63,870 nt of DNA, filler included, from Dugesia japonica (GCA_001938525.1; 5 parts of 5 records of this genome joined end to end with filler, not necessarily neighbours in it); one strand, 5' to 3'; positions 18,247-59,800 are shown, counted from the whole stretch's first letter. Notes: a model not told the origin generated them from the letters alone. Numbers and translations: made by a program.

Positions 18247-19309
18247 AGTAAATCAATAGTAGCGCATGGAGCCACCCCCCTCGCGAGGGAAATTTTTTTT
18301 CGACCGATTTTCCCCACTTATTTTTGTTTAAATGAGGTGAAATTATTTATTTTGTTTAAATGAAGTAAAATTATTGATTTTTTGTTTAAATTAATGAAAT
18401 TAGTGATTCTTTGGTGATTGTTTCTTTAAATTTAATGAAATGAATAATTTTTTAGTTTGTTCAATGAAAAAATATTGAAAATGCTTCGTTTAATTAAACA
18501 AAATTTATCGAATGTGATTTTCTCGTTTTTTTTACATGATTTTTGTGCTCGTTTTTTTTCTACGATTTTTGGGATCAAAATATTTTGGATCGGATCAAAT
18601 TATTTTGATCGGATCAGTTTTTTTATTTAAAAAGTAGGTCAATTTGAGTTTGTGTATGTAGTTGTGTGTGTAAGAGTGGAAAAAACGAGGAGGTGGAGCT
18701 GGAGATCTTGAAACTAATTTTTTGTAAATTTAAAGATTTGGTTGTGATTGGACAAAAATTTGGTCTATATATTGTCTAAAAGACTTAAGAGTTTTGATGG
18801 ATGGTTTTCGCTACAAGGGTAAAAGCGAACGGGCACAGTTGTATTAGTTATCGTGGGTTGTTTTTAGGTAGGCTGTAGGTTCGTATGTGGTAAATGGAAT
18901 TTGTTGTTTGATAGGTTGTTGGAAAGGTAATGTGATGTGGAAGATAATTCATGTCGAATGTTCTTTGATTTTTTTATTTTAAGGGCTTGAATTTGATTGG
19001 TTTATTTTGTAAGTAGTATAAGTGTGTTAAAAGAAATTTCGTGAGGTGGAGGTTGGTATGTATGGAAAGAGAATTAATTATCGGATTTTATAAGATTTAT
19101 TTGAAATTTTTTGTCGGGTGGTTATGACGTCATAATTTTTGAAATCTTTATTTTGGTTAAAAATGCTATATTTTGCTTAAATTGATGAATTTAATAAAAG
19201 TAATGATATTTTTGAGTATTTGATTTATGTTTGGTTATTTTTTTGGTATTTTTGAACAGGTAAGAATTGTTTTTTAATAATTTCGAACGAGGAAAAGGAT
19301 AGCATTTAT
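18247..19309 (+). mobile_element. Polinton-type terminal inverted repeat (left-facing copy)
   Basis: ~18540-19290 is a diverged reverse complement of ~59850-60590, which flanks Polinton integrase and penton genes. Begins AGTA...AGCGCA. Confidence 0.7.
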
Positions 19310-35392: not shown

Positions 35393-35595
35393 TGTTAGTA
35401 ACTGATAAACTTTCTTAAAAGTCCATTAAATTCAATAAATTTTTATTTATAACACAAAATTTCAAATTTTCAAAAAACTGTTTTCAAAAGCTGAATATTT
35501 AAACAAACCTTTTAAATGTTTTAAAAAATTCTTGAAATCTTTTATAACATTTTCTTCAAACTTTTATTTGCGATTTTCAATTTTTAATCCTTACA
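35393..35595 (-). repeat. 3' LTR of the short Gypsy element
   Basis: Direct repeat of 38245-38458; preceded on the minus strand by a purine tract. Confidence 0.9.
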
Positions 35596-38244
35596 TCCCT
35601 TCGATTAAAAGAATTTTTTAAGCTTTTCTACGTTCCTTTCTAGCTCTTTTAATTTGTATTGCGTATACGATATCGTCTCTCATGTACCTTATCCGTGATC
35701 TTGTATGGACCAACGTATCTTTCATTGTCTTTTGTTCTAGTTTCTAGTTTAATCAATACTTCGTCTCCCACTTGAAATAGTCTTTTTGTAGGTGTTTCTT
35801 CCATTAACTCTTTGTCATCTTTTTGACTGTCAAACCATTGTTCTCTGTGAATTCTCCTGCCGAATACTTATTCTGCTGGTGATATCCCATATGTCTTTTG
35901 ACTTGTCGCATTCATTATGTATTGAATCTTCGGTATCCTGTTACTCCAATCCTTTCTTCTGTCTTCATCTGTGGCTGCGTTAATACAGTCTCTAATTGTG
36001 CAGAATTGTCTTTCTAAAATTTCGTTTGTATTGTGATGGTACAGACTTGAAAATTATATTTCTATATTCATCGATTCCATCAGATTCTTGAAGTTTTTCG
36101 ATTCAAATGTCTTACAGCTGTCTGCCTGAACTTCTCTCGGTGCTCCAAATCTCAGGATCCATTTTTCCATTATCACTTTTTTAATTGTCTCATCATCTTG
36201 CTTGCTGATTACCGTTAGGCTTATGTTTCGAATGTATTAGTCTATTATTCCACATATATCTCTTCATCTGTTCACAGTCTCTCGAAAAGGTCCCCATATG
36301 TCCATATATATCTTTTCAAATGGAAAATTTGCGCTTAATTTTACTGTTGTCTTTTTCGTTGCCACTGTATTAACTTTGTTCTTTGGGCACGCTTTACACT
36401 GTCTTATCACTTCTGTAATTGTCTTCTTCAGTTCTTCCATGTCGTTAATGCTGATTATATAGCTGATCATTTTCTCTGTTCCTGCACTCTATACTTTGAA
36501 TTCTTTCCTTCTTGAATATCTCGTTTGATTAGTTTGATTTCCTCTATTTCTTCTTGCCATTTACATCTCTCTATCGTTATTATCTGATTAATCTGTCTTG
36601 TTTTCATCTTCCCCATCTTTGGATTTGCATTTTGTATTTGACATTGAATGCACGTTCCGCATTTCATTCTTGAGAGTATATCTGCGTTTATGAGTTTTTC
36701 GCCTTGTCTATGTATTAGTTCATTGTTCATCTTCATAATCCTTTCGTTAAACGGTATCCAAACTGGCGTTACATGTCTATTCCTCCAACAAGATTCGAGC
36801 TCATTTCTTCCACTACGTTGAATTGTACTGTTTTCTGCACTTATTTGCACATTTTAACATGTCATCAGTTCCTATCAGCGCCACATTTGCCAGACTTATA
36901 ATAATATTGAGGCTCATCACTTTTTTTGCACCTATATTCAAAAGGCAGTCCATATATTTTCCGTGAATTCTAAATTCCACACTGAGCCTACTTTGCATCC
37001 TATCATAATTTATTTTTACTTGTTCATTCTCTTCTAATACCATTATTCTGTTATCAACACTTCTTGTTTCTTTCATTATATTGATATCTGCATTATATAT
37101 ATCTTTGAAATCTTTCTTTAAAACCACATAAACGTTTCTGTCGACTCTTTCCTATTGAGTTTCATCTTTTATACTATTAATTAAACTACTTTTACTATAC
37201 ATATGTATCTCGCGATCTGGATTGTTTTTCAGTTGATTGCTCTATCATCTTCATCCTCTTCTACCATTGCGTTTACAGATCTACGGCTGTCTCTTTTCCT
37301 AAATGCATTATTAACTGATGTCTTCCCACTCAGCTTTGAGAATCTGTTATTATCGTTATATCTTCTGTTTGTTTCCTCTCTTCGGTTGTATTGTGCTGCT
37401 TCGTTTCTTTGTTCATTATTCTGCTGTCTTCTATCATTAGTCCACATACCTCTTTTCTCCAAATTAGAATAACATTGTTCTGTATGATGTCCATTTTTTC
37501 AACATTTTGATCATCTAATTTTGTCACAATTCCTTCTTATATGATTCTCTGATCCGCATGCGTAATACATTCTTTTCTTTTCCGGACAATTTCTGCTGAT
37601 ATGACCTATCTTCTGACATGACCAACATGTAATTTCTTTTTAATCTTCACTTTGAGTTCCGTAAACGGTTGAAAAGCGTTCTTTTGTCATGCCTCTTTTT
37701 ACTGCATTGCTGTAACTCTCAAATGTATTTATATTATTTGTTTCTTCCAGGTCATCCTCATTTGTTTTTATTGTTTCAAATATCTCTTCCGAGTTAGCTA
37801 GTTTGCCTCCTTTAATCTTTATTTGCATTCTTTTGTCGCGGCAACTATTGAATATTAATTCTTTTGTCATCTCTTCTTTGCCTAGTTTGTGTGCAAAGAT
37901 TTTATTGACCAGTGTTAAAATCTGTTTCTTGTGAACATAAACGTGTTCATCCGTTCCCTTGTATTTTAAAGCTTCCACTAAGTCTTGTATTAAAGTAGTC
38001 TTTTTGTGGAACGCTTTTCTCAGTCGGTCCTCAAATTCTAATAATTCATCTTGGCATTCGTATGCTTCTCTTAATTCTCGATCAATTAAGCCAACCACCA
38101 AGCGGTTTTTATCCTTTTTCTTTACACCAATACATTCGAAGTATTTTGTGCAACCATTGATAAACTGTTCAATATCGTCAAAATGCCAGTAAATTCCTGG
38201 GTGTAGTACTTCTCGAATGAGGTCCATTGAAGCGTTGATCGCCA

Positions 38245-38458
38245 TGTTAGTTACTGATAAACTTTCTGAAAAGGCCATTAAATTCAATAAATTTTTATTT
38301 GTATTACAAAATTTTAAATCTTCAAATCTTCCAAAAAACTATGTTTTTAAAAGCTGAATATTTAAACAAACATTTTAAATATTTTTAAAAATTCTTGAAA
38401 TCTTTTGAAACATTTTCTTGAAACTTTAAATTGCGATTTTCAATTTTTGATCTTTACA
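38245..38458 (-). repeat. 5' LTR of the short Gypsy element
   Basis: Direct repeat of 35393-35595; followed on the minus strand by a TGG PBS. Confidence 0.9.
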
Positions 38459-38840: not shown

Positions 38841-39970
38841 TTAGGTTGATGAAATAAAGATCTCAACTTTAAATTAGTACAACTCAGCTTTCAAACAAGT
38901 TTATTAATCGAAATAAAAATTACTAGAATTAACGCAATTTTGCCAACGTGAAACAAGTTTATTTAAAACGGTAGTATAGAAATCCGAAGTTCTGGTGGCG
39001 ATGAAGTTGGCAAAGGCGTTTTTGGCGTCGTCTTGGTTTTTGAAGCATTTCTCATAGAGAAAATTGTTCAGATGCTTGAAAAAGTTATAGTCGGTGAGCG
39101 AGAGGTTTGGCGAATATGACGGATGAAGAAGAGTCTCGTAGTCTAATTCGTGAAATTTCTGCAGGGTTAGTTGTGCGACGTGCGGTTGAGCGTTGTCATG
39201 GAGAAGAATTAGTCTTTTTCTAATGACCAATGCTGGACACATACGTTGAAGCTTCTAGTGCATTTCTTCAATATGTTGACAGTACTTTTCTGCTGTAATC
39301 GTTTCACCCAGATTCAGGAATTTTTATGGATAAGACCGGCTGCAGATCACCAAACAATCACCATAACCTTTTTTGTTAAAATGTCAGCTTTGAAAAGTGT
39401 TGTGATTGTTGATTGCGGTTCAACCACTGCAACAAACGTCGCTGGTTGTCATAAAAAATCCACTTTTCGTCGCACGTTATAATTCGTTCAAGAAAATGAT
39501 CGTTTTTTGTTGCGCAAAACGAGCAAAGATGCAACTTCAAAACGACGATTTTTTTCTGTTCTGTCAATTAGTGTGACACCCACTTATCGAGCTTTTTGGT
39601 CTTTCAAATTTTCTTCAAATGACAAACGACGGTTCAGCTCTTCAGCAACTTCTCGTGTAGTTTTGCGAGAATCAGCCTCGATTAACAGCTTCAATTACTT
39701 ATTATCAATATCTAATGGACATCTGGCATGAGACTCATCATCGAGGCTGGTATTGCCAGAACGAAACTTCTGATAACAACCATACACCGCACATTCGTTG
39801 ACACTTGACTTGCCACAAACTTCGTTGATGTTTCAGCGGTTTGAGCGGCATTACGTCCTAGCTTGAACTCATAGAAAAAAAATACGGCGGAAATCGCGTT
39901 TCAACATCTGTGAATAAAAGCCAAATTATAGGCATAAGAAAAATTACTTTAAATTTTAAATAAATATTTA
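38841..39970 (-). mobile_element. Mariner transposon, pseudogenised
   Basis: FFYEFKLG start, FLERIITCDEKWIFYDN, LHDNAQPH and HPSYSPNLSLTDY; TTAGGTTG TIR-like end at 38841. Confidence 0.92.
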
Positions 39971-40058: not shown

Positions 40059-40158
40059 NNNNNNNNNNNNNNNNNNNNNNNNNNNNNNNNNNNNNNNNNN
40101 NNTTAATTAATTAANNNNNNNNNNNNNNNNNNNNNNNNNNNNNNNNNNNNNNNNNNNN

Positions 40159-41010
40159 TCTATAAAATGCTGCATGAGTCCAATGAAACGAGCTGCTTGA
40201 TGGCCAACGAGAACGGCCATAAAAGTCTTCAAGCCATATCATGTTTTGCGTTATCCACAGACTTGCTGAGAGTTTGGATACGAATGGACGGGAAATCTTT
40301 CAGTGCTTTGTTGGATACATGCAGTAGGGTTTTCTTAATAAGGAGTGGGGTAAGAAAACACGCAAAGCTTAACAGCATGTGTGGTACGCGTTTGGAGTCG
40401 GTGAATGGGAGTGCACTGAATATACTGGGAAAGTGTNNNNNNNNNNNNNNNNNNNNNNNNNNNNNNNNNNNNNNNNNNNNNNNNNNNNNNNNNNNNNNNN
40501 NNNNNNNNNNNNNNNNNNNNNNNNNNNNNNNNNNNNNNNNNNNNNNNNNNNNNNNNNNNNNNNNNNNNNNNNNNNNNNGTAAATTTCAAGTAATTGTGGA
40601 AAACCAGCATTCAAGAGTCAGCATGATGAATAGCATACCAAGCGAAGAAAAACTTTTAAATATATGCGCGACAATACCAGAGAATGATCACAACTTACTG
40701 ATTGATGACACGATTTCACAGCATGGTTTGACAGTGGTAAATGGACTGTCAGATGGAAGTTCGTTGTGGAAAATCCTATTGGTNNNNNNNNNNNNNNNNN
40801 NNNNNNNNNNNNNNNNNNNNNNNNNNNNNNNNNNNNNNNNNNNNNNNNNNNNNNNNNNNNNNNNNNNNNNNNNNNNNNNNNNNNNNNNNNNNNNNNNNNN
40901 NNNNNNNNNNNNNNNNNNNNNNNNNNNNNNNNNNNNNNNNNNNNNNNNNNNNNNNNNNNNNNNNNNNNNNNNNNNNNNNNNNNNNNNNNNNNNNNNNNNN
41001 NNNNTATTGG
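40159..41010 (+). mobile_element. LTR-retrotransposon aspartic protease region remnant (gappy)
   Basis: MDGKSFSALLDTCS...LESVNGSALNILG. Confidence 0.65.
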
Positions 41011-41589
41011 GTAAGATTATTAATTAATAATTATTTCCTCATAGGTTTATTGATTGTATTTAGTTTTATAGGGTTAAATGGACTTGGATAGTATAACTAT
41101 TAAATAAATTAAATGTATGAATGGTTAACTGTATCGAAATTATATTTGAATGTATGAAATTACCGTACACTTATATTATTAGTACATAAATATAAAAAAC
41201 ACTAAAAATTTTATCAAGTTTTATTTAATAGTTATGACTTAATTGAACGAATTTAAAATTATGAATATAAGAACGATGATCGATTTGGTCATTGGATGTA
41301 ACAATTCTTTATGGATCAATTACCATTAAAGGACCTAAAAATGTCACCGATATAGAAATTCAAATTTTCAACACATTTTTTTCAGTAATAATGACTTTTT
41401 GATAGATTCAAAATCATAATAGATTTTTGGTAAAAAATTCTTTATATTTTATCAACATTTTATTGGTCTATTTAAATTATAATTTCATTATTTTGAAATT
41501 AAATCTCAAAAAATCTTTTTTTAATCAAATTAAATTGTAAAATAAATATTATTTATTTTTAAATATTAAAAATATTTTATAATTACAAT

Positions 41590-43943: not shown

Positions 43944-45235
43944 ATGAGACATAATCCAGCCAAAGTAAAGCGATCGGTCTCCTACAACAGACCGTCTCGA
44001 CAATTCAACCCACCTCTATCAATTTCAACATCCAAATCACCTAATTCGTTCCCGTCTAACGACGAGGTACAAGGAGGATTTGATACCATAACCGAACCAA
44101 CCCACTCAAGAGCCGATTCTTAGAAGACATTAATCCGGAAAGTTTATACGAATCTAAATCAGTTATTGAGAGTATAACTACGACAAGAGCATCAAGTAGA
44201 ATTCGTCAATACTCGGAATCTAGTTCGGAATCAAGTAATACTGATACTATGTCAGCCAACAATAAAGAAAAGGAAACCGAGGAGAATTCTAAAATTTCAG
44301 TTGAATTCAGAAATTGAATGATTTTATTGCAGAAGTATACATATATAAGCGTGTCAATGGAGTGACAAGAAAGCAGCAGATCAATCACCTCTATATTTGA
44401 AGGATTCAGCTAAAACTATTTACTGGGATAAAATTAATAGTCGTAAAGAACCCGTTGATACATGGGAAAAGCTAAGGAAGTATTGTTGGAAAATTTCAAG
44501 CCAATAATGTTGCAAGAACAAGAAATTCAAGAGTTCGTTGGTCGAAGACAACTAAGAGATGAAATCTTTCAGGCATACGCAACAGAATTACGTAAACTCG
44601 GCAAATTGGCGATGAAAGATAAGTTGGATGATCCAANAGTGCTCGGTATTTTTATTAAAGGACTTAGAAATGCAGAAGTGAAAAAATGGGTAAATCTATC
44701 TCAGCCCACGACGGTGGACATGGCAATAAACGCGGCGATGGTAGCACATAAAGTGGAAATGAATCAAAAACAAGCCAGTGTCTTTAAAATTGAAGAGCAA
44801 AAAGAGGAAGAGAAAAGCGAACCAAAAATTGCGGATTTTATACCTGCCAGAACTCAACCATTATTAAGAAGACTGTCAGCAGGTCAGAATAGACCACCAG
44901 CATGACAATCAAATAATAATTCAAGATCAACTGGAGGAAATAGATAAGGAGCGTGGCAGCAACCCCAAGGAAGTACCTGTTATAACTGTGGTAAACTCGG
45001 TCATTATGCCAGAGATTGCAGATTGGCAACGATATGTACAAATTGTCAGAAACCAGGACATAAAGCGGAAAATTGCTTCATCACAAAATCCTCAGTGTGT
45101 TATTCATGCAATAAACCGGGTCATACGAGTAGAAATTGTTTCCAGAATAACCAAAGATCTGGCTATAGGAATTCTAATACAAACTACAATAATAAATCAA
45201 GAAACAACCAGGCCATTGGGAAAATGATGGACTAA
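43944..45235 (+). pseudogene. gag: Gag (capsid plus three CCHC zinc knuckles)
   Basis: WSDKKAADQSPLYLKDSAK...TW; RRQ...FQAYATELRKLG...FIKGL; knuckles CYNCGKLGHYARDC, CTNCQKPGHKAENC and CYSCNKPGHTSRNC. Confidence 0.9.
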
Positions 45236-45559
45236 AATGATAAATTAAGGAACCAGATAAAAAATAATCGAAACCAAAATCAACAACAAGTGAATCTAAT
45301 GCAACAAGATAAGCGAAGGTAAGATGAAATAGAGCAGCGAGTATTTGACAAGTTGAAACAAGAGCAGGAATATTTACAATTACAATTAGAGGGATAACAA
45401 GTAGCGAGAGAGAGAATGCAAAAGCGAGAGAATAATCGAGGACAGATAAATATGATGAGAGCACATCCAATGGAAGTTGAGCTATCGGCAAAGGAAACAG
45501 CAAAAAGAGCAACGATAACGAGACAGCTTGAGGATAAAATTGCAATGATCCAAACTTTC

Positions 45560-48500
45560 AAGACAGTAGTTTATCGAGAAGCATATTGGGCAATGATGAA
45601 TCATTTGTTGGAATTAATGGAGTTAGAGGTATTAGATGCGTACACCAGTGAAGTGTGGTTTCTTCAGTCGCAAGAATATGAATCGGAATACAAAACCTGA
45701 TGATTAAAGTATTAATGCTTACGGGCCGGCCATAGATGAAGATTCAACTGAATTAAAATATCAAGAGATACCTAGGAAAATTGTGTTGAAGGATACTACT
45801 GTGAGTGGATTATTACANNNNNNNNNNNNNNNNNNNNNNNNNNNNNNNNNNNNNNNNNNNNNNNNNNAGTATGTTTTGTGTTCTCGAACTAGAGTGATCG
45901 AACAAGATGATGGTAAAGCACATATATCGGAATATGGAGTTTGGCCAGGTAAAACAACAATAAAGTTAATAGATTTAGTAGAAATGCATCGCATTAAACG
46001 ACCATTGTAGTATTATTTTGATTTCAGAACGACCGAGCAAATATTAAAATCATTTGAAAAGAAATATCACAAATATATGGTGTTATAACGGACGGAGTCA
46101 ACAACTACAACCAAAGGAATAAGCAAATTGCAGCAAGGATTTCTGACAGATGTGGTAAAAGAGATCAGACAGCCAATGACCCGGCAAACAAGAGGAGCAG
46201 CAAAAGCAGAAAATACCATGGCTCAAATCAGCATGATAACCAAAAGCGATCCAACGCGATCGAAAGCCCCGATTAGATACAAAACAAGAGTGTATGATTA
46301 TGTAGAAACGGTCATAAAGGATGTTAAATTATTGAAGGATGAATTACCCAGGAAGGCTTATTGGAAATTAATGAATCATTTAGTTGAGTTAGCTGAACCA
46401 GGTCATATTGACACGATGACGGGAGAAAAATGGAGACCAATAATTCTTGAGTGTGAGAAAGAGTTGTTAGAAAACACAACCGTGGAGGATTATAAAATCA
46501 AAGCAATGGAAGCATGGAGACCGGATGAAGATAGAACCGCATTCATTACGATGGATCAGGTTTTGAAGAAAGTATCAATGGCGACAAAGTGGAACATCCA
46601 ACGAGTGTTAAAACCGAAAGGAACGACAGTAACAGACTTAATCGACGTGTTGGAGGAGGTGGAATGGGTAAAACCCATTGGCGAATATATTATCTGTACC
46701 CCAGTGTCAGTAGTTAGTATCAATGATATGAATGTACATATTTACGAATATGGTCTAAAACCTGGAACTACTATAGTAATTACGATGTTAGAAAATCGCA
46801 GAATGCGTTTATATAACGAACTAATTTGGGCTCATTTCTACTTTAGAACAACTGAAAATATAATCATTTCGTTGAATAGATGTCAAATAAAGTATCTTGC
46901 GCCTTTATTAGAAAAGAGAACACCACAGATAACCCGATTAATTGAATTACCTAAAGCGGAAATACCGAGCGTTGTAATGAAAACTACTATAGAAGCTAAC
47001 GATGAAAAGTTATCGAGAACACAGCCAGGACCAGCTAGAGTTTTTATGATGAGATCATTTTCAAGTAAAATACTAAAAAGAGGTAAAAAGGGTGCTAACA
47101 ATCAAGAAATGTGGGAGAAGGAAGTGTGAATGAGCCGCGTGAAACATCAGCTACTGTCAATGAGGACAGTAACGAGGATAACTATCATAATTTAGCTGCA
47201 ATAAATAAATACGTGGGTATTACATTAGAAAGAAAAGAATTAATTCCGAAACAAACTTATTGGAGAATGCTGAATTTAGTTTGGGATGTACACTATCATT
47301 ATGATATATTATGGGAACATTGGAGGAACTAGTCTGAATTAATTAAAGAGTATCAGGAGATGATAGTAGCAACGACAGTTGGATCGGATTTTAGGGTAAA
47401 AATCCACTATCCTACAATGGATGATAATTTGTGCAAGACCATGCAGACGAAAATAGTTGAGGAATTTAAAACTACCAGAGTGGGTGAATTGCGAGCAATA
47501 CTGAGTAAATTGCCTTTGGAGAAAATATTTGAGAAATATCGGATTGTGTGTGATTATACAAAGAGACAAACTGAATAAAAGGGATCAACATGTGATTGAA
47601 TTACGATTGAGACCAGGAGAGATTACTGAATTAACATTGGAATTAGATGACCGAAAATTAGAAACCGAAAAAGTTTGAATTACAATCAATTAGTCGAATT
47701 AGGACAAAAATGAGAAAAGTGTATGTAAATAAAATAGATAAAATGGAATATTTGAGAATCGTTACTGACGAGGAGATCAAGTGGATTGCAGATGCAGAAA
47801 ACGAAAGCGAACCGTGGCAAAGTTTGAAGCGAACTACGGCAAAAATGGCGTTAACAATTTACAAGAATTACAGTCAAATGGCTGAGTTGAATATTCAAGA
47901 GATAATAAACAGATTGAACCAGTTGTGTATGATAGGAAGAAAAGAGTTGTACACCCTTATACATACGTTAACAATAACTCATGCAGACGGCATAACAAAA
48001 CAAGATGTGAAAGTAACAGTGCATTTCCCGGATGAATCAAGTAAAGAGTTTGATATTAAAACGACGACAAACTGGGATAAATTAATAAAGAAAATTATCA
48101 AACATTTGAATAAACAAACAACGAAGGGATAAGAGAATACACCCATTACTAAACGATAGGTTATTGTAGTTTATTGCGGAGGAGAGTGAGGCCATATGAT
48201 GAATGTCTATATTTTTGCAAATGAAGAAAATGAGAGAAACTCGTATACGTTAAAATCAATCAGAGAAAATTTGTGTAGAAAGACAATACGGTATTATGCC
48301 AATAATATCAATCCAAAGTTGACATGGGGATTGCAACTACATAATGATGAAATTGAATTATCAAATTGAGAAACGATAGCGGTAATACAGCAGAGACCAA
48401 TGTTACATCGCCAATACAAATCAAATCAAGAGTTGAGTAGATCACAAGAAATGATAGCTGTAATGACCGGTAAATCGAAAAAAGGTAGTGGAGATTCTGC

Positions 48501-48930
48501 CGATATGATAGATCAATTTTTATAAAAATTCAAGAGAAAAGTATAAACAAAACCAATGTGGAGCATATAGCGGATTAATTATTGCAGAGTGATTTATCAA
48601 TTGAGGAGTTGAGATCATTGACCTACGAAATATCCAGATGTAAAGAGGAATGCAAATGGAGACCAAAACAATTTAAACTGCTGATATCAAGATGGAGAAA
48701 ATGCAAACAAGATGAAGTAGTACCACTTAGATTTAGCTTCAGAATCGTAGAACCAGATGGTCATGAAACGAGAATCTCGAATTTGGCGTACGAGACAGTA
48801 AACCAGATGAAATCTAAAATACCATACAAGTTGCCATATGTACTATTGAACAATCGGGAATTATTGAATAACGATATCATCGGGACGTTGGATATCCGAC
48901 AAAAGGTAGAAAATAAAATGTATATCAAAC
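45560..48930 (+). pseudogene. Array of repeated novel domains: 3x (YWxxxN motif plus ubiquitin-like fold) and 2 further Ubl-like units
   Basis: YREAYWAMMNHL / PRKAYWKLMNHL / PKQTYWRMLNL; HISEYGVWPGKTTI / HIYEYGLKPGTTI / HVIELRLRPGEIT; VTVHFPDESSKEFDI; FRIVEPDGHETRI...ETVNQMKSKI. Confidence 0.55.
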
Positions 48931-49839
48931 CGGAAGGTAGTAAACGATTGATCAGAAGAAAATTACCACCCAATGAAATTAAAAATAAATTGCAATCGGG
49001 ACTAGGATCAAGTCAGACATTGATAAAATCATTTGTACAACCAATGACGCCAGTTAGCACGAGTGAAGTAGTTGCCAAATCAAGAGGACGACCGAGAAAA
49101 TCACAAATCAAGGAGTCAACACCAGAAAATATCACAGAAGATGAAATAGTAGAACAGATTTTTGATCTTGAAGATGAGGTGGATGATGAAGAGATTCAAA
49201 TAACCCAAATGGAACCAGCGACCACGTCAGAGTCAAAAGTACTAATGAAACCAAAAAAGTTGGGAAAATTTAATCCAAATCAACTGGATTTGGATATGGA
49301 GGAAGACGATATATCAGTTAGATTGGACGAAATTGCCGACGAAATAATACCACAAACGGCAATGTTTGAAGAAATGAAAATGACAACGGATAACACGGAT
49401 TGGAAGTACAATTTTGTCAACGGAAAGTAAACAATTAGCAACGATATTAGAACCGATCATAGCCAAATTACCAGTTGCCAAACATACCCTCCTCAAGGAT
49501 CGAGAAACGATGGAAAAAGAAGTACAAGGGGTATTGTCGAATCGCCCGACAATTCCAAAATTATTAGTGGCATTTGCATATTTAGTAAAACAAACGCAAA
49601 TATCAGTTCGTTGTAGGCCAGGAATGAAATTTCAATTAAGAAATCTACCGATAGTCAGGATAACAAATGATCAAATCGAACCGATATTAGTAAAGGTCGG
49701 AGGTTGGAATAGAATAATCGAAAAGACGAAACCAAAAACAAATTCGAGTAAAACATTAAACGAACGAGTCCATGCATTATTAAAAGATTATATCGACGAA
49801 TACGGAACTGAAACGAATCGAAGCACAAGAACCAACAGT

Positions 49840-51751
49840 ATGCAGTCCATGTTCATGGTATTAATATTAATGTTCTTAATGGGCCGAAGTGCAGCAATCC
49901 GAGCTTATGATTGTGATCATATGGATATCGGGGAAACGGTGTATTCATTAATCGATGCAGAGGAATCCCCAGAAGCAAACCCAGAAAAGTTAGAAGTTGT
50001 ACAGAAGTCGATTAGTTATTTTGTGTACCAAGAATCAGATTATTACAAGACAAATGTAAGGGAAAATAAAGTAACAATGTAAGTATTTGTATATTGGTGT
50101 GGAGGAAGTAGTTATTCGGCGGTCATATCCCCAGGTATGGAAGTAATGCATGTTCTCCTTACAAGACAACAGTGCGAATCTGGATTTACAACCGGTAAAA
50201 TACCAGTGGGGAAAGGAAAGATGATTAAGGAGGTCAAAAAGTACAAACCCGTCTGTTCGCAGCAGGATCAATCTGGGATGCTACGGGAACATGTGTACAA
50301 GGGAAATACACTAGCCCTTTAGGTTATGCGACTGGAGTCGTGGCCATAGAAAGTTATAGAGCGGAATTAAAAGAATTTGATGCCTTATTTGATACAACGA
50401 CCAAAACGATGAAGATGTATTCAATGTTTTTAGCCTCAGATAATACGTGTAATACAGGAGAGTCAACTTTAGTATATCAAGTCAATCATCAAGAATGTAC
50501 GATGTCATTTCTTAGAGAGGTTTTGTTCGATGAGTATCGAGGAAAGAAAATTGTTGACTCAGTTAAAGAGGAGAGAATGCCAGCCATCGGAAAAGTAAAC
50601 GTGGAAATGAAGACAAAGGAGGAAGCTCTATTGTCGTCTGATACACGAACCGTATTAATGGCAACCGATGCAAATGATATGATTAGATTAATCCGTAAGA
50701 AATCCGAGGCCAATGTGGAAAAAATGCATATAAAACAAATTACAATAGAATCTTTGTATCAAAGTGGAGACTGGAAAAGGGAAGAGATGGAGTTATGCCT
50801 CAAGATACTAAGTTATATTTATATCTGAATAATAAAGTGGACACTTTGTTCCACCTAGCGCAACAATCTATGGAGCGAATGTATCATGATTTGATCTATA
50901 ATGACTGTTTGTTAAATCGCGAAATATTACGGACAAAATTAGCAACAGCGATAACGAACCCCGACAATGTAACCCCAGTGTTACCATTGTAAGAGGGTCA
51001 TGTCGGGCAAATTGTTGGAGAATTTATGTTCATATATCGATGTAGGAGGGTGGAAGCAATTTTATCCAGAGAGAAAACTTGCTATAATGAGATGGAAATC
51101 AATTATATGGGAGAAAAAAGGTATGTACAACCTATTATAAGAGTAATATCAACAAAAGCATTCGTACCAAACAAACTGTTTTAATTTATTCGAACCCTAC
51201 TTTAAAATGACTAACAATAAATGGATATATTTCCCTGAGAGATTACCTGCAGATACGTTTGTGAGAAATTTTTCAGCATTAGAACTGAAGGCGGGGCGGA
51301 CTTTTAACCCATTAAATGTAGCAGAAGGTGGTATATTCAAATTGGAGGATCTGGAGAAGGCCAGAGAGCACATGTTGTTTCCGGTCAAACGAATGCAAAT
51401 TTTATCTAACCTTGTGTATGTCGCTGGAGGGGCATTTACTCAGAGGGGAGACCGAATTATGAATTATTATTATCACTAGATCACTTTCAACAAGCAACAG
51501 CAAATGTAATGAAGAAGATGTGGGGTCGATTTATAGTTTTCGGACAAGCCATGGCAGGATTATTGGGGATAATCTTTATAGTGCAAATAATAAAAGTATT
51601 ACTGACTCAATTATTAGCGTGTTTCGATTTATACAAAAAGGAAAGGAAAATGTCCTGGACAATGATTATAGGATTATTCCCAGCGTGGGCTAAATCAGTA
51701 GTAATAAATAGTCATTCAAATGACTTGCATAACACCAGAAGGTTATTGTGA
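49840..51751 (+). pseudogene. env: Chuvirus-like (class III) fusion glycoprotein / env
   Basis: Signal peptide then AYDC; YSL; YWCGGSSYSAV; QQC; YLNNK...MYHDLIYNDC...LATAITNP; GE..IYRC..VE...CYNEM...YVQP..RV; GGIF..EDL..R.HMLFP; MWGRFIVFGQAMAGLLGIIFIVQIIK (TM). Motif order matches Jingchuvirales glycoproteins as I recall them. Confidence 0.85.
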
Positions 51752-52499
51752 TATCTGAGTCAATTGGGTGGAAGCGACAGGTAGATAGTTGAACAAATTC
51801 GTGCAATATGTGATGACATGAGAAAGCGAAAAGCAAGGAAGACATCCTATTTTGATGTATTTAAACCATGGAGATGACAAGATAGTAGTAGTGATGATAG
51901 TAAAGATGATTCATATGGCAAACGACAAAGACGAGGAGTAGTACCGAGTTACGGATCTAGAAAGCACCAGAAAGTATTCTAAGTGAATTATCAGAATCAA
52001 TTATCAGATGGGAATATCGCGAAAGATAATATTTGTGACCAGGAGGACAGAAGTGAAATTTATTGCTATGGTTACCCACAAATGGGAGTACAACAGTGTG
52101 AGAATAACAAATAATTTAGTAAATATCAAAGTGATGACTAAAGACAATCTAGGAAAGGAGAGAAATTAAACGAATATCGGAGTGAAGAGGAGCGACATTA
52201 CCGATCTGGAAATGGGAGAGGACGGAAAAATAGTAAAGCATGGAAGCAGCTATAGAATTCAAGTTATGATGCAGAAAATCGAGAATTAATCTACTATCCG
52301 AATGATGAATTACAGTGAATACGCAGACAGCCCGACTTCGAGGAACTTAAACAACGAATTCGAGCAGAGTATGAAGATAAAAAGAAATCTTATAGAGTGA
52401 CAGATAACAAAATTATTGGAACAGCACCACCCGAAGATACAAATTTCAGTATAATATCTGATAGCAAAGAAATAAAAGACAAGGATACCAGAAGCCTTG

Positions 52500-52790
52500 C
52501 GCCAATGACAATATCAGGTGGTAGAGTGTTACTCAAAAAATTGATAATTAACGGTAGAGAAATAGATTGTATGATCGATACAGGAGCGTGTAGATCAATC
52601 ATCGATAAATGAGTGTTGTATGAGGTAGATAAAGCTAGAATGCGTAAAGAAGGAATCCAAATGCTAACGGTAACCGGACAAGCCGTAAATACAGTGCGGA
52701 AATGTGCGCTTTATGCATCCTATGCAAGTAATGCAGAATTTAGTTTTTGATTGTATTGTGGGATTGGATATAATGGGAAGGCGTTTTTCA
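52500..52790 (+). pseudogene. Retropepsin aspartic protease 1
   Basis: LIINGREIDCMIDTGACRSII...LTVTG...FDCIVGLDIM. Confidence 0.88.
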
Positions 52791-52858
52791 GGTGGAAAAT
52801 TAGATTTGAATTTGTGTCAACAACCGAATGAAAGTAAATTAACAATGACTCAGACAAA

Positions 52859-53205
52859 ATGTGTACATTGCAATAAGCGAGGTCATTTATCAAGCAGATG
52901 TTGGAAAGTTGGAAATAATCCAACCTGGTGTATAAATTGTCAACGACCAAACCATACCACTAAAGAATATCNNNNNNNNNNNNNNNNNNNNNNNNNNNNN
53001 NNNNNNNNNNNNNNNNNNNNNAAGTTGGAAATAATCCAACCTGGTGTATAAATTGTCAACGACCAAACCATACCACTAAAGAATATCGCAGTAAATATAA
53101 ACATTGTAAAACTTGCGGGAAAAAGGGGCATTCCGAAATGGAATGTGAGAAATTGAATCGATGTTATGTGTGTGGTTTAATGGGGCATTTATCAAGAGAT
53201 TGTCG
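52859..53205 (+). pseudogene. Second zinc-knuckle cluster (4 CCHC-type)
   Basis: CVHCNKRGHLSSRC, CINCQRPNHTTKEY, CKTCGKKGHSEMEC and CYVCGLMGHLSRDC. Confidence 0.85.
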
Positions 53206-53289
53206 GAGACGAGTTGAACTCAAACCAGAAATCGGAAATACAGTTAAAATTCCTCGAACGAAGAAGAAAGTTTATGTGTGTTTAAACTA

Positions 53290-53599
53290 TTCTGAGACTG
53301 GGAATCGAATACTAATAGATCTAAAAATCAATGGGAGGATATTATCCGCGTTGTTGGATACCGGAGCAACAATATCAGTATTAAATTATAATCTAATATC
53401 ACCAACCAAGTGGCCATANNNNNNNNNNNNNAAATCAGAAATATTTTTAGCGGATGGATGGCAACCAGAAGTGTATGGCAAATTGCGATGTGAAGTTGAG
53501 TATCAGAGGAGAACAGTATCGCATGAAATGACAGTAATGAATATGAGGGAGGATTGTATATTGGGAACGGATCTAATTCCATTATTGATGAAAATGTAG
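53290..53599 (+). pseudogene. Retropepsin aspartic protease 2
   Basis: LKINGRILSALLDTGATISVL...FLADG...EDCILGTDLI. Confidence 0.9.
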
Positions 53600-54042
53600 T
53601 TTTGAATATGACAACATTGAAAATATCGAATTCCAGAGAAAATCTATATATGAAGGATAATGAAGTATATACAAACGAAAAATTGGTGATACCGAGGAGG
53701 AATCAAGTATTTTGTATTGCGAAAACCCAAGCAAACTGTAAAGAGGATATGATTTTTGAACCACTTGAAGGGTTCTCAAAGCGATATAAATTACTAGTGG
53801 CGAGGGAAATAGTAAAAGTGTCTGAAGAGGGCAAAGTGCCAGTGAATGTATTGAATATGACAGAGGAAGATATTACTATTTATTCAAATTCCAAAATCGG
53901 AGTATTAACCCCACTGGAAGACGAAGAGGCGGAAATGAATAATGTGATAAATAATGATTATGAGAAATTAAAAGGAGATATGGCGAAGCGATTGGAAATC
54001 GAGTTACCGACAAACGCATAAGAAGTAGATCAGACATTTAAA

Positions 54043-54784
54043 GTGGAATCAACCATTCTATCAGCAGCAAAAAAAGCTAAATTATTACAACTATTGGAGG
54101 AATTCAGAGATAATTTTGCGTGGACAAACAATGAATTAGGTACGTGCTCGGTGACCAAGCACTCAATAGTACTAACAGACGAAACACCGATAAAGTTGCG
54201 AACTTATAAACAGGCCGAGGCAAACAGGAAAATTTGCGAGGAGAAAATTGACGAGATGCTAAAATTTAAAGTAATCGAGCCAAGTTGTTCACCGTGGCAA
54301 TTTCCAGTAGTATTGGTAAAAAATAAAGATGGAATAATGAGATTCTGTATCGATTACAGACAACTAAATGCGAAAACGAAAAAGGTTACTTATCCGTTAC
54401 CAGACATTAACAATATGTTAACGTTATTATATAATGCAAAGATATTTGCGACATTAGATTTGCGGAATGGATATTGGCAAATCAAAATAGAGGAAGCAGA
54501 TAAAGAGAAAACCGCATTTTCAGCAGGCAAGGATTTATATCAATTTGTGCGAATGCCGCTTGGATTGATAAACGCGCCAGCATCATTTCAGAGATGCATG
54601 AATTTTGTGACACGTGGCATACCACAGTGTATGGTATATATAGACGATTTGGTGATATTTTCAGTTACGTTTGAGGAACATTTAAAGGATTTAAGAAATG
54701 TGTTTGTACGAATAAGAGAATGGAAACTACGAGTGAAACCAACAAAGTGTGAATGGGCGAAAAATCAAGTGACTTATTTGGGGC
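54043..54784 (+). CDS. pol: Ty3/Gypsy reverse transcriptase (N-terminal part; runs into a gap)
   Basis: IEPSCSPWQFPVVLVKNKDG..RFCIDYRQLN, LDLRNGYWQI, KTAF, MPLGLINAPASFQR, YIDD and KCEW...VTYLG. Confidence 0.95.
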
Positions 54785-54884
54785 NNNNNNNNNNNNNNNN
54801 NNNNNNNNNNNNNNNNNNNNNNNNNNNNTTAATTAATTAANNNNNNNNNNNNNNNNNNNNNNNNNNNNNNNNNNNNNNNNNNNN

Positions 54885-56899: not shown

Positions 56900-59800
56900 G
56901 TAAATAGTAAATTTATGTTTATTCCATAACTTCTCGTATTTTCTTTTGAATAGTTAACCGAAATATTTAAATTTTTGGAGGATTTGATTAGAAAATTCTT
57001 CGAGAGGGTTGATTTTAGTACGATTTTAATGAATAATTTCCTTTGTTTGGTCTATTTGTGTTTAATGTTTACGAAAATTCGTGGGAAATCGACGAAATTG
57101 TTTAACTAATTCATAGATTACAGAATACTGAGAATCAGTGAACACTGAGAAAACCAATTCACTTAAAATTTACCCATATCAAGCAACTCCGTGTAAATAA
57201 TTGACCAAATTTATCTAAACCGAGTAAATAATTGATCAAATCTTCCAAAAATCAACCAAGTTAATCATTACAGAGGAAATATTTGACTTCATCATCCAAA
57301 GATTATCCAAATTGACCAAACCCAAGGAAAAATTAGACCCAATTACCCAAAGATTACCAACCCCGATGAAAACTTAGAACAATTTTACATAAACCAGTCA
57401 AAAATGTACCATATTCGACCTCACCAAGAAATTTTCAACCAAATTCGCTTGAACCAATCAAAAAGTAACCTAAATCAACCTCACTAAATAAGTTCACAAA
57501 TACGCGTGAAAAATATTATTGCTTAAAAAGCCTCAATAATTTTCACAACTAAATACACAGTAAAAATTCTACCTCTAAAAAAGCGTGAAAAAATATTGCC
57601 GCTTAGAAAGCCTGAAAATATTTTCGCCAACTTAAAACATAGACTCTGCATGCAAAATATCAAGAATACCCCATTTCTTACATAAAAAAGTAATTTAATT
57701 AGATTTAATTATAATAAAAAGATTTCTTCCATTGCAATGAAAAATTTCCAATCTAAATATTGTTTTTCGAATTTCCAGCCAAAAATATTTTTTTTAAAAG
57801 TTCCCGCCAAAATCTTTTTTAAAAATAACACGATTCCCTCTTTCCCAGTCAAAAATCTTACAAAACAACACTTACCTGATCAAAATACCGATAAAATAAC
57901 CAAAATTACATCAAATACTCAAAAATATTATTACTTTCATTAAATTCATCAATTTAAGCAATATACAGCATTTTTTAACAAAATAAATATTTCAAAAAAT
58001 TATGACGTCTCTTTTCATTTCTCTATTCTTTTACCCTCTTCTTAACTTTTACCCTCTTCTTTCTTTTACCCACTATTTTTCTTTTTCCTGTTCTTCTTTT
58101 TTACACTCTTCTTTTTTTTAATCTCTTTCTTCTTAACCCCCTTCTTTCTTTTACCCTTTTCTTTTCTTTTCTTTCTTTTACCATCTTCTTTCTTTTACTC
58201 TATTCTTTTTTACCTTATTCTTTCTTTCACCCTCTTCCTTCTTAACCCACTACTTTCTTTTATCTTTTCTTTTTCTTTTACCTTCTTCCTTCTTTTATCC
58301 TCTTTTTACCCTCTTTTTTTACTAATTCTTCTTTAACTCTCTTTACTCCTAAATTCTATACACCATGATTTCTATACAGATATCAAAACATTTACTTAAA
58401 GGTTTTATATATACTTATTATATGGAAAGGTTCCATGAATTTTCGATTTTTATGAAAAAAGTTCTATTTTTTTATAATTTTGTAAAGAAACGTTCCCAGC
58501 TAATATGTTTTTTTTATAGAAAATTGTCACTAGTCATATGTTTTATATTAAAAATTGCATCGCTAATCAGATGTTTTATTAAAAACTGTAAAACTAATGA
58601 AATTTTCTATTAGAAATTGTAACTCTTATGTGATGTTTTATTTAAAATTGCAATACTAATGAGATTTTTTATTGAAAATTACATTGTCAATGAGATTTTT
58701 TTATTAAAAATTACAACACTGATGAGACTTTTTATTTAAAATTGTAAGACTAATAAGTTTCTTTTTTTTGTAGAAAACTTGCATGATCTATGTTTTTATT
58801 GAAAATTGTCACTAGTAATATGTTTTTTATAGAAAATTACCTAGTTAATGTTTTTTAGTTCTGTTTTTTATTATTTTATAAAGAAAAGTTTTAATTTGAA
58901 TATTTTATCATGTAAATATTACAAAGATTCCTTTCTTTGATGTTTTCTTTTGATAGATATATTTTAACGTGTAAATATCACAAAGAACCCTCTTTAAAGA
59001 TTGAAGTTTCTTAAAAGTATATTTTATCATGTAATATTGCATTGTCAATATGTTTTTTAATGGAAAATTGCATCGCTAAATAGATTTTCTATTGAAAATT
59101 GCAATGGTAATGAGATTTTATATTAAAAATTGCATTCCCCTCTTTGGATATTTTTAATAGTTATATTTTTATCATGCAAATACCACAAAGACTCCCCTCT
59201 TTGAAGTTTTTTTTTTGATAGATATATTTTCATAAATGCAACTCAGATGCAACTCAGATGCTACGCACTTACACTGAAAATCACAAGTCTGAGAATTTTC
59301 AAAACTTAACATAGGGGCCATTTTGATTTTTTTAAATAAAGGCAATAGGTATGCAGCTCAAATGTAACTCAGATGCAAACACACATTTACTGAAAATTAC
59401 GTGCCTATGAATTTTATTCTGTCTCATACCTTGCAAAATATCAAGTCTGTCTCATCCAATGCAAAATATAGAGGTTCCTTATGTCAAATATAGTAGCTCC
59501 CCATTCAAAATATCAAGACTGGTCATATTATTCATAAATATCTTGTAATAATATCTTAAAAAATATCAAGACTGCACATAACATGCATAAATATCTTAAA
59601 AAATATCAAGACTGCAATACTATACATAAATATCTTGTAAAAATATCTTAAACAATTTCAAGTCTGCCCATAACGTGCATAAAGATCTTGTAATAATATC
59701 TTAAACAATATCAAGTCTGTCCATATTATGCATAAATTTCTTGTAATAATATCTTAAAAATTAAAACGTTTGTCGATTTTAATAAAAAAATAGAGACTCT

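Follow-up and report, generated by a model that had tools for sequence, protein, structure and literature searches.

A triplicated module with a probable ubiquitin-like part between gag and env of a decayed Burro-like Ty3/gypsy element of Dugesia japonica

What is encoded by the long stretch between the nucleocapsid and the envelope glycoprotein of a retroelement in the planarian Dugesia japonica, and what could it do for such an element? The DNA analyzed here, called the window in the following, comprises 63,870 nucleotides (filler included), in which five parts of genome assembly GCA_001938525.1 are joined end to end. A previous sequence-only reading had pointed to an array of repeats with ubiquitin-like (Ubl) folds at 45560-48930. 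We favor the reading, with chances that we consider about even, that the array constitutes the accessory segment of a retroelement of the Burro-like gag-env-pol type, and that its three-copy module and two further likely Ubl units would form a multivalent docking platform for host proteins that read ubiquitin.

The array is part of an A-rich element on the + strand, which spans approximately 43.0-54.8 kb in an AT-rich and gap-ridden surrounding. Pfam and a motif scan gave the gene order gag with three zinc knuckles, array, mononegavirus-type fusion glycoprotein, proteases, and reverse transcriptase (RT) (Table 1). The tandem accessory cargo is thus located inside a Gypsy element, as had been proposed, between nucleocapsid and Env and flanked by Pfam matches to gag and RT. 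The host of the array is a decayed, multi-copy Ty3/gypsy element, and the copy in the window is dead. No RNase H, integrase, or LTRs were observed in the element, which is cut by the N gap at 54785. In Env, hydrophobic stretches were found at 49849 (internal, signal-like) and at 51548 (C-terminal membrane segment). The helical stretch preceding Env shows a spacing which we take to be BH1/BH2-like; it has no match in Pfam and no relevant one in the PDB sequence search. 3′ of Env, a block of knuckles and protease seems to have been duplicated, with DTG motifs at 52574 and 53351 and CCHC motifs at 52860, 53105, and 53162. Since the N gap at 52972-53021 lies within a locally repeated stretch of this block, part of the protease duplication may be an assembly error. 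Between protease and RT, a stretch of 160 residues (53527-54000, + strand) matched Beta_helix only (E 0.03).

Table 1. Features of the retroelement in the window, ordered along the + strand
Feature	Position	Strand	Evidence
Gag capsid-like part	44459..44902	+	sub-threshold Pfam match to Retrotrans_gag (E 8e-4)
Three CCHC zinc knuckles (nucleocapsid)	44948..45232	+	zf-CCHC E 1.3e-19, 3 stretches; motifs at 44978, 45035, 45098
Unit 1 of the repeat (YW helices, Ubl-like part, and FRTTE tail)	45515..46085	+	aligns with unit 2
Repeat unit 2, unbroken in ORF 46089-47126	46281..46910	+	alignments, structure models
Unit 3 of the repeat, the most strongly diverged and without a clear tail	47198..47690	+	aligns with unit 2
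Unit 4: Ubl-like start of its own (RA/FERM-N-like), preceded by a helical stretch	48007..48270	+	weak Pfam; end uncertain
Unit 5: ubiquitin-like by eye, unbroken in ORF 48579-49427	48732..48935	+	sequence
Basic-then-acidic low-complexity linker, one AT-hook-like motif (49086)	48940..49427	+	AT_hook E 0.11
Candidate Bcl-2-like helical domain just 5′ of Env	49411..49737	+	BH1/BH2-like spacing by eye
Broken Env, pieces of class III fusion glycoprotein	49849..51650	+	Pfam Monjiviricetes_fusion, 6 pieces, E 1.6e-3 to 5.7e-11
Two retropepsin-type protease stretches, CCHC knuckles between	52319..53596	+	RVP E 5e-9; gag-asp_proteas E 0.006
Reverse transcriptase, cut by assembly gap	54022..54784	+	RVT_1 E 2.2e-33; N run from 54785

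Further remnants of mobile elements are present in the window. At 35472-38458 (- strand), a separate small and decayed Gypsy-like element is bounded by a direct repeat of 124 nt (89% identity); by eye, it contains a gag-like ORF with knuckles as well as protease-like and integrase-like pieces, and RT is apparently missing. A fragment of a Mariner/Tc1 transposase (DDE_3, Transposase_1; E 2e-4) is located at 39000-39600 (- strand), and a gap-ridden ORF with a retropepsin-like motif at 40107-41024 (+ strand; Asp_protease_2 E 0.095) is probably another retroelement scrap. Minisatellites with periods of 31 nt and 53 nt at 58510-59167 and 59509-59795 lie near dispersed inverted repeats that also occur at 18970-19252.

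Both the gene order and a Ubl domain at this position have already been published for the planarian element Burro (PMC6431247). According to this source, Burro carries gag with three CCHC motifs, MATH, BIR, ankyrin, an Ubi2/SUMO-like domain (PF11976), BCL2, an in-frame env, PR, a dUTPase-like domain, and RT; the env of Burro/GYPSM1 matches mononegavirus fusion proteins, and the Ubi2/SUMO-like domain is located between gag and env. The earlier statement that no Gypsy element with such cargo was known is thereby not supported. The element in the window resembles Burro in Retrotrans_gag with three CCHC motifs, in a long accessory segment, and in a mononegavirus-like env between gag and protease. 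The Ubl-type domain between gag and env may have a counterpart here, for which the ESM Atlas gave a lead to PF11976 (0.83, without Pfam match), and the BCL2 domain before env may have one in the candidate helical stretch at 49411-49737, again without Pfam match. At the place of the dUTPase-like domain of Burro, between PR and RT, we found the stretch 53527-54000, which has no dUTPase match. A difference from Burro is the segment from gag to env itself, which comprises approximately 1540 codons here with three helical plus Ubl-like repeats and two more Ubl-like units, whereas the text of PMC6431247 names one Ubi2/SUMO-like motif and no array on the protein level; this comparison refers to the text and not to the tandem repeats marked in a figure of that paper. 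The element in the window also has a pair of protease stretches separated by knuckles, an arrangement that the section on Burro in PMC6431247 does not mention. MATH, BIR, and ankyrin had no Pfam match in the pieces scanned, and no BIR pattern occurs in the three + frames. Therefore, we filed the element as a Burro-like GAG-ENV-POL element and not as Burro itself. Burro elements are described as exceeding 30 kb and as being silenced by PIWI (PMC11410931, PMC8532177).

GAG-ENV-POL order has also been published for errantiviruses, among them six elements of 14.5-18 kb from S. mediterranea (PMC13524379). The GAG-ENV-POL errantiviruses of Platyhelminthes with HSV/gB-type Env share with the window element the order gag-env-pol and a gB/chuvirus-type env, and among the six flatworm rows in supplement file 3 of this source, Smed_errantivirus_6 and _5 are by eye the nearest to the Env described here, with many matches on the level of motifs. 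Env similarity and composition by themselves would also suggest a planarian flatworm as host. In PMC13524379, the word "ubiquitin" is absent from the main text and seven supplements in a word search, so that this source gives no annotation of the accessory segment.

The reality of the repeats was analyzed on the protein level. The motif [PY][RK]xxYWx[ML][ML]N occurs exactly three times in the six frames of the window, at 45572, 46347, and 47246; because these copies themselves served to define the pattern, the count provides no independent test. The repeat unit has a length of about 200 residues and consists of a helical YW part, an Ubl-like part, and a tail. In unit 2, these are a predicted three-helix part (approximately 46270-46475), an Ubl-like part (approximately 46490-46795), and the FRTTE tail. 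Unit 1 is damaged by a frame change near 45700, a 50-nt N gap (45818-45867), and one stop, and unit 3 by a frame change near 47575 in addition to stops. In total, the reading frame of the array changes five times, the reading path 45708-49427 contains 8 internal stops, and there is one N gap. For whole-unit comparisons by Smith-Waterman, X was placed at the breaks. Units 1 and 2 scored 178 and units 2 and 3 scored 99, values reached by none of 1,000 shuffles each (maximum 51 and 57, respectively). The corresponding identities are 61/166 (37%) and 45/158, compared to 26/122 between units 1 and 3, for which the score of 39 was matched by 86/1000 shuffles and is not significant. A profile of units 2 and 3 recovered both pieces of unit 1 (iE 1.8e-6 and 1.1e-8). 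The profile of units 1 and 2 found unit 3 at iE 0.8-1.8 only, so that unit 3 is joined to the set via unit 2.

The sub-domains were compared in single-frame pieces without any joins (67 pairs, 1000 shuffles). For the helical parts, the score was reached by 0/1000 shuffles for units 1 and 2, by 0/1000 for units 2 and 3, and by 24/1000 for units 1 and 3. For the Ubl-like parts, it was reached by 0/1000 for units 1 and 2 and by 1/1000 for unit 2 against the C-terminal piece of unit 3; against the N-terminal piece of unit 3, 99/1000 shuffles reached it. The FRTTE tails of units 1 and 2 gave 0/1000. The three diverged repeats with the YW motif and the FRTTE segment common to the first two, both claimed from sequence, are thus borne out, with the motifs in place and the alignments of units 1 and 2 and of units 2 and 3 far above the shuffles; the quoted string beginning with TTVTDLIDVL is that of unit 2 only. 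A failure of the repeats to align, named beforehand as speaking against the array, applies to units 1 and 3 and not to the other two pairs. On the DNA level, the best blastn match of units 1 and 2 comprised 31 nt (81%, E 0.17). Since the DNA likeness is nearly gone, the duplications appear to be old, and the 37% protein identity is what would be expected of old duplicates that were kept as protein.

The two further units had been quoted with their starts, and both starts are present as quoted; the units align neither with the repeat nor with each other. Against the repeat profile, the scores of units 4 and 5 were reached by 43/299 and 60/267 reported shuffles, and the score of unit 5 against the Ubl-like part of unit 2 was reached by 17/1000. 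Both were considered as further copies of the repeat, for which these tests gave no support. Unit 4 is broken by stops; its nine weak Pfam matches, all below cut-off, include RA_2 (E 0.003), FERM_N (0.02), Ras_bdg_2 (0.03), and PI3K_rbd (0.05), which we take to be beta-grasp families. The ubiquitin likeness of unit 5 follows a pattern that we presume to be typical, and the unit had no match in Pfam or PDB sequence searches. An identical stretch of 13 nt encoding KWRP occurs at 46428-46440 in the third helix of unit 2 and at 48654-48666 in the helix before unit 5 (E 0.6). This match, which is not significant, may hint at unit 5 being a very old fourth copy.

Concerning the fold, the repeats probably include an ubiquitin-like (beta-grasp) domain; we consider this likely because several weak signals agree, none of which is significant on its own. 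AlphaFold2 was run twice, for unit 2 alone (227-residue construct; mean pLDDT 41, under 50 from residue 69) and for its Ubl-like part with a 4-row alignment (mean pLDDT 37.5), where a helix is followed by four strands in the C-terminal half. With the unit 2 model, Foldseek returned 0 matches at E <= 0.001 (TMq <= 0.24); among the 47 matches listed, eight chains (ThiS twice, NEDD8 twice, TtuB, Mpe1, UFM1, and the Ddi1 UBL) presumably have a beta-grasp fold. VIA-align gave a best Z of 3.3 and no chain at Z >= 5. Of five ESM Atlas rows for unit 2, four carry Rad60-SLD, CLU_N, or ubiquitin families (the last in two clusters) and one belongs to a cluster without a name, all at 0.81-0.83, scores which below 0.9 (recognition 2159) are leads only, as a third of shuffled proteins reach 0.8. 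The top row was PF11976, the family of the Ubi2/SUMO-like domain of Burro. No Ubl family was found in Pfam for units 1, 2, 3, or 5, and sequence searches of the PDB with units 2, 4, and 5 and with alignment A2 gave none either. The Ubl folds claimed from sequence are favored by weak but agreeing leads (ESM, Pfam for unit 4, Foldseek), with both models at low confidence. The repeats share with integral (type II) Ubl domains such as Rad60-SLD, UBX, and RA/FERM-N, whose family properties we assume here, the predicted strand-helix-strand order, the embedding in a larger protein, and the lack of a terminal Gly-Gly. They differ in having no match above curated cut-offs, in an insertion of about 25 residues that unit 2 as an Ubl would need in the first hairpin, and in the pairing with the YW helical domain.

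These data also bear on the strongest alternative to docking, in which the repeats would belong to the Gag shell as a structural component of matrix or spacer type, with their own fold and a superficial likeness to ubiquitin. Their position directly 3′ of the nucleocapsid, the missing statistically solid Ubl match for units 1-3, and the lack of any homologue found fit this alternative, whereas the weak leaning of three tools (ESM, Pfam, Foldseek) to beta-grasp families and the Ubl domain published at the same position of related elements (PMC6431247) argue against it; we regard it as rather unlikely.

For the YW part, residues 5-72 of unit 2 were modeled as three helices (block pLDDT 47-78). 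VIA-align matched this part to the N-terminal domain of Vta1 (Z 8.1, rmsd 2.2, 73 aligned), to chain B of calpain-7:IST1 (Z 6.8), and to an archaeal ESCRT-III/AAA-ATPase chain (Z 6.6), all of which we take to be MIT domains. However, 465 chains reached Z >= 5, the identity to the MIT-type chains is 7-8%, and Not5/CNOT3, designed bundles, and sensor domains obtained equal scores, a Z under about 13 being ordinary for helical bundles. A PAH-like domain, which had also been considered, was set aside as less likely after no Pfam match and no PAH title among the 50 VIA matches listed. Retroviruses use short late motifs for budding. An MIT-like bundle with an integral Ubl as second handle, captured and triplicated, could be imagined as a folded, multivalent adaptor that recruits ESCRT-III and the ubiquitin machinery for budding from planarian cells in place of such motifs. 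The element encodes a fusogen, and no PPxY or P[TS]AP motif is present in the three + frames, in agreement with an adaptor of this kind; the tie with unrelated bundles, the lack of a usable ESM Atlas match and of any Pfam match for the helical part, and a literature search that listed no such element make both the recruitment and the budding role improbable.

To see whether the array belongs to an element family, sequencing runs were searched, and 10 of 24 listed runs contain part of the stretch, none of them half of its words; no run recorded as RNA is among the ten. Two contig sets, with 18,759 (X1, presumed DNA) and 9,185 contigs (X3, kind not stated), cover 30/30 bins including those of the array, which accordingly belongs to the family; contig depth across bins does not equal copy number. 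The family contigs are mostly 90-99% alike, and many diverged relatives exist that include the array. Among the 40 family-wide differences listed, besides which 1,100 more exist, 31 are on the reading path, and five of these 31 fall in stop codons of the copy, although only 24 of 3306 codons are stops (P about 3e-6). This excess indicates that many stops are private damage of this copy. Two RNA runs (of 7 raw) contained 236 and 15 reads of mixed strands, 230 and 15 of which were under 95% alike, and the bin 46473-46869 had zero depth in both. Relatives of the element are thus weakly transcribed in these two runs, and their reads gave no sign of transcription of the copy in the window.

That the array is a functionless passenger, made of host-derived or slippage-made duplicates, could be argued from the breaks throughout this copy, from the erosion of unit 3, and from family contigs with deletions over parts of the region. 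It appears as doubtful as the ESCRT adaptor, considering that the protein likeness persists where the DNA likeness is nearly gone, that the family covers the array similarly to gag and env, and that a polyprotein would presumably pay a high cost for long, useless sequence inserted between gag and env.

Among 1.84 billion representatives, phmmer found no match to unit 2 at E <= 0.001. ORF 46089-47126 had no homologue among proteins of 30-189, 190-606, and 607-2000 aa. Metagenome contigs yielded 43 pattern matches, none of which was confirmed, and NCBIfam contained nothing relevant. A weak profile match at 36.0-36.2 kb (iE 0.012) was rejected, as it overlaps the integrase of a different element in another reading frame. 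As the libraries searched may be poor in animal transposon proteins, these blanks are weak evidence of novelty. The novelty claimed for the YW domain is therefore upheld only as far as these libraries reach; with no relative detected, the domain may represent an undescribed family. A description of a triplicated YW plus Ubl module did not appear in the literature searches, and the extended data of Grohme 2018 may hold more on the Ubl region of Burro. On the basis of these comparisons, the new part would be the triplicated module of helical YW part, Ubl-like part, and FRTTE tail; the rest is known.

In the docking reading, all functional steps of which are inferred, intact relatives would produce gag, array, and Env (possibly with pol) as one chain; the five frame changes inside the array are a point against a single open frame. 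The array would remain cytosolic with Gag, since the hydrophobic stretch at 49849, where Env would begin, lies 3′ of it, and would either be cut free by the protease of the element or be kept on Gag. Gly-Gly ends are absent from all five units in their reading frames, and the only in-frame Gly-Gly of the array sits inside unit 4. Integral Ubl domains without Gly-Gly serve as docking surfaces, and the missing Gly-Gly ends suggest docking domains rather than conjugatable decoys. A release of the units as ubiquitin/SUMO-like modifiers or conjugatable decoys, which the proposal of decoys or processing signals in the sequence-only reading had included, is very improbable and largely refuted. Tandem Ubl-like units beside a protease do resemble the layout of a polyubiquitin precursor, but terminal Gly-Gly is missing and each repeat embeds its Ubl-like part between the helical domain and a conserved tail. 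An anti-silencing role, also proposed in that reading, drew no support from the data.

As docking domains, the non-conjugatable Ubl units would bind receptors such as proteasome receptors, p97 cofactors, or SUMO-binding proteins, and three to five of them in a row would provide avidity for proteins of the ubiquitin, SUMO, or p97 pathways. The triplication would be old and kept on the protein level. Binding may shield proteins of the element or blunt host responses, beside the apoptosis-related cargo published for Burro (PMC6431247). Ubiquitination and apoptosis have been discussed there as themes of the Burro cargo, and the same source asks for experimental confirmation of the function of accessory cargo.

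Elements of this type, their gene order, and a Ubl domain in them were already known, which limits the surprise. Unit 2, being small, natural, and free of breaks, could be expressed alone. Flatworm enveloped retrotransposons carry virus-like accessory cargo of putative function, and within this cargo a module that was amplified three-fold and kept on the protein level would point to selection for dosage or avidity in an interaction with the host.
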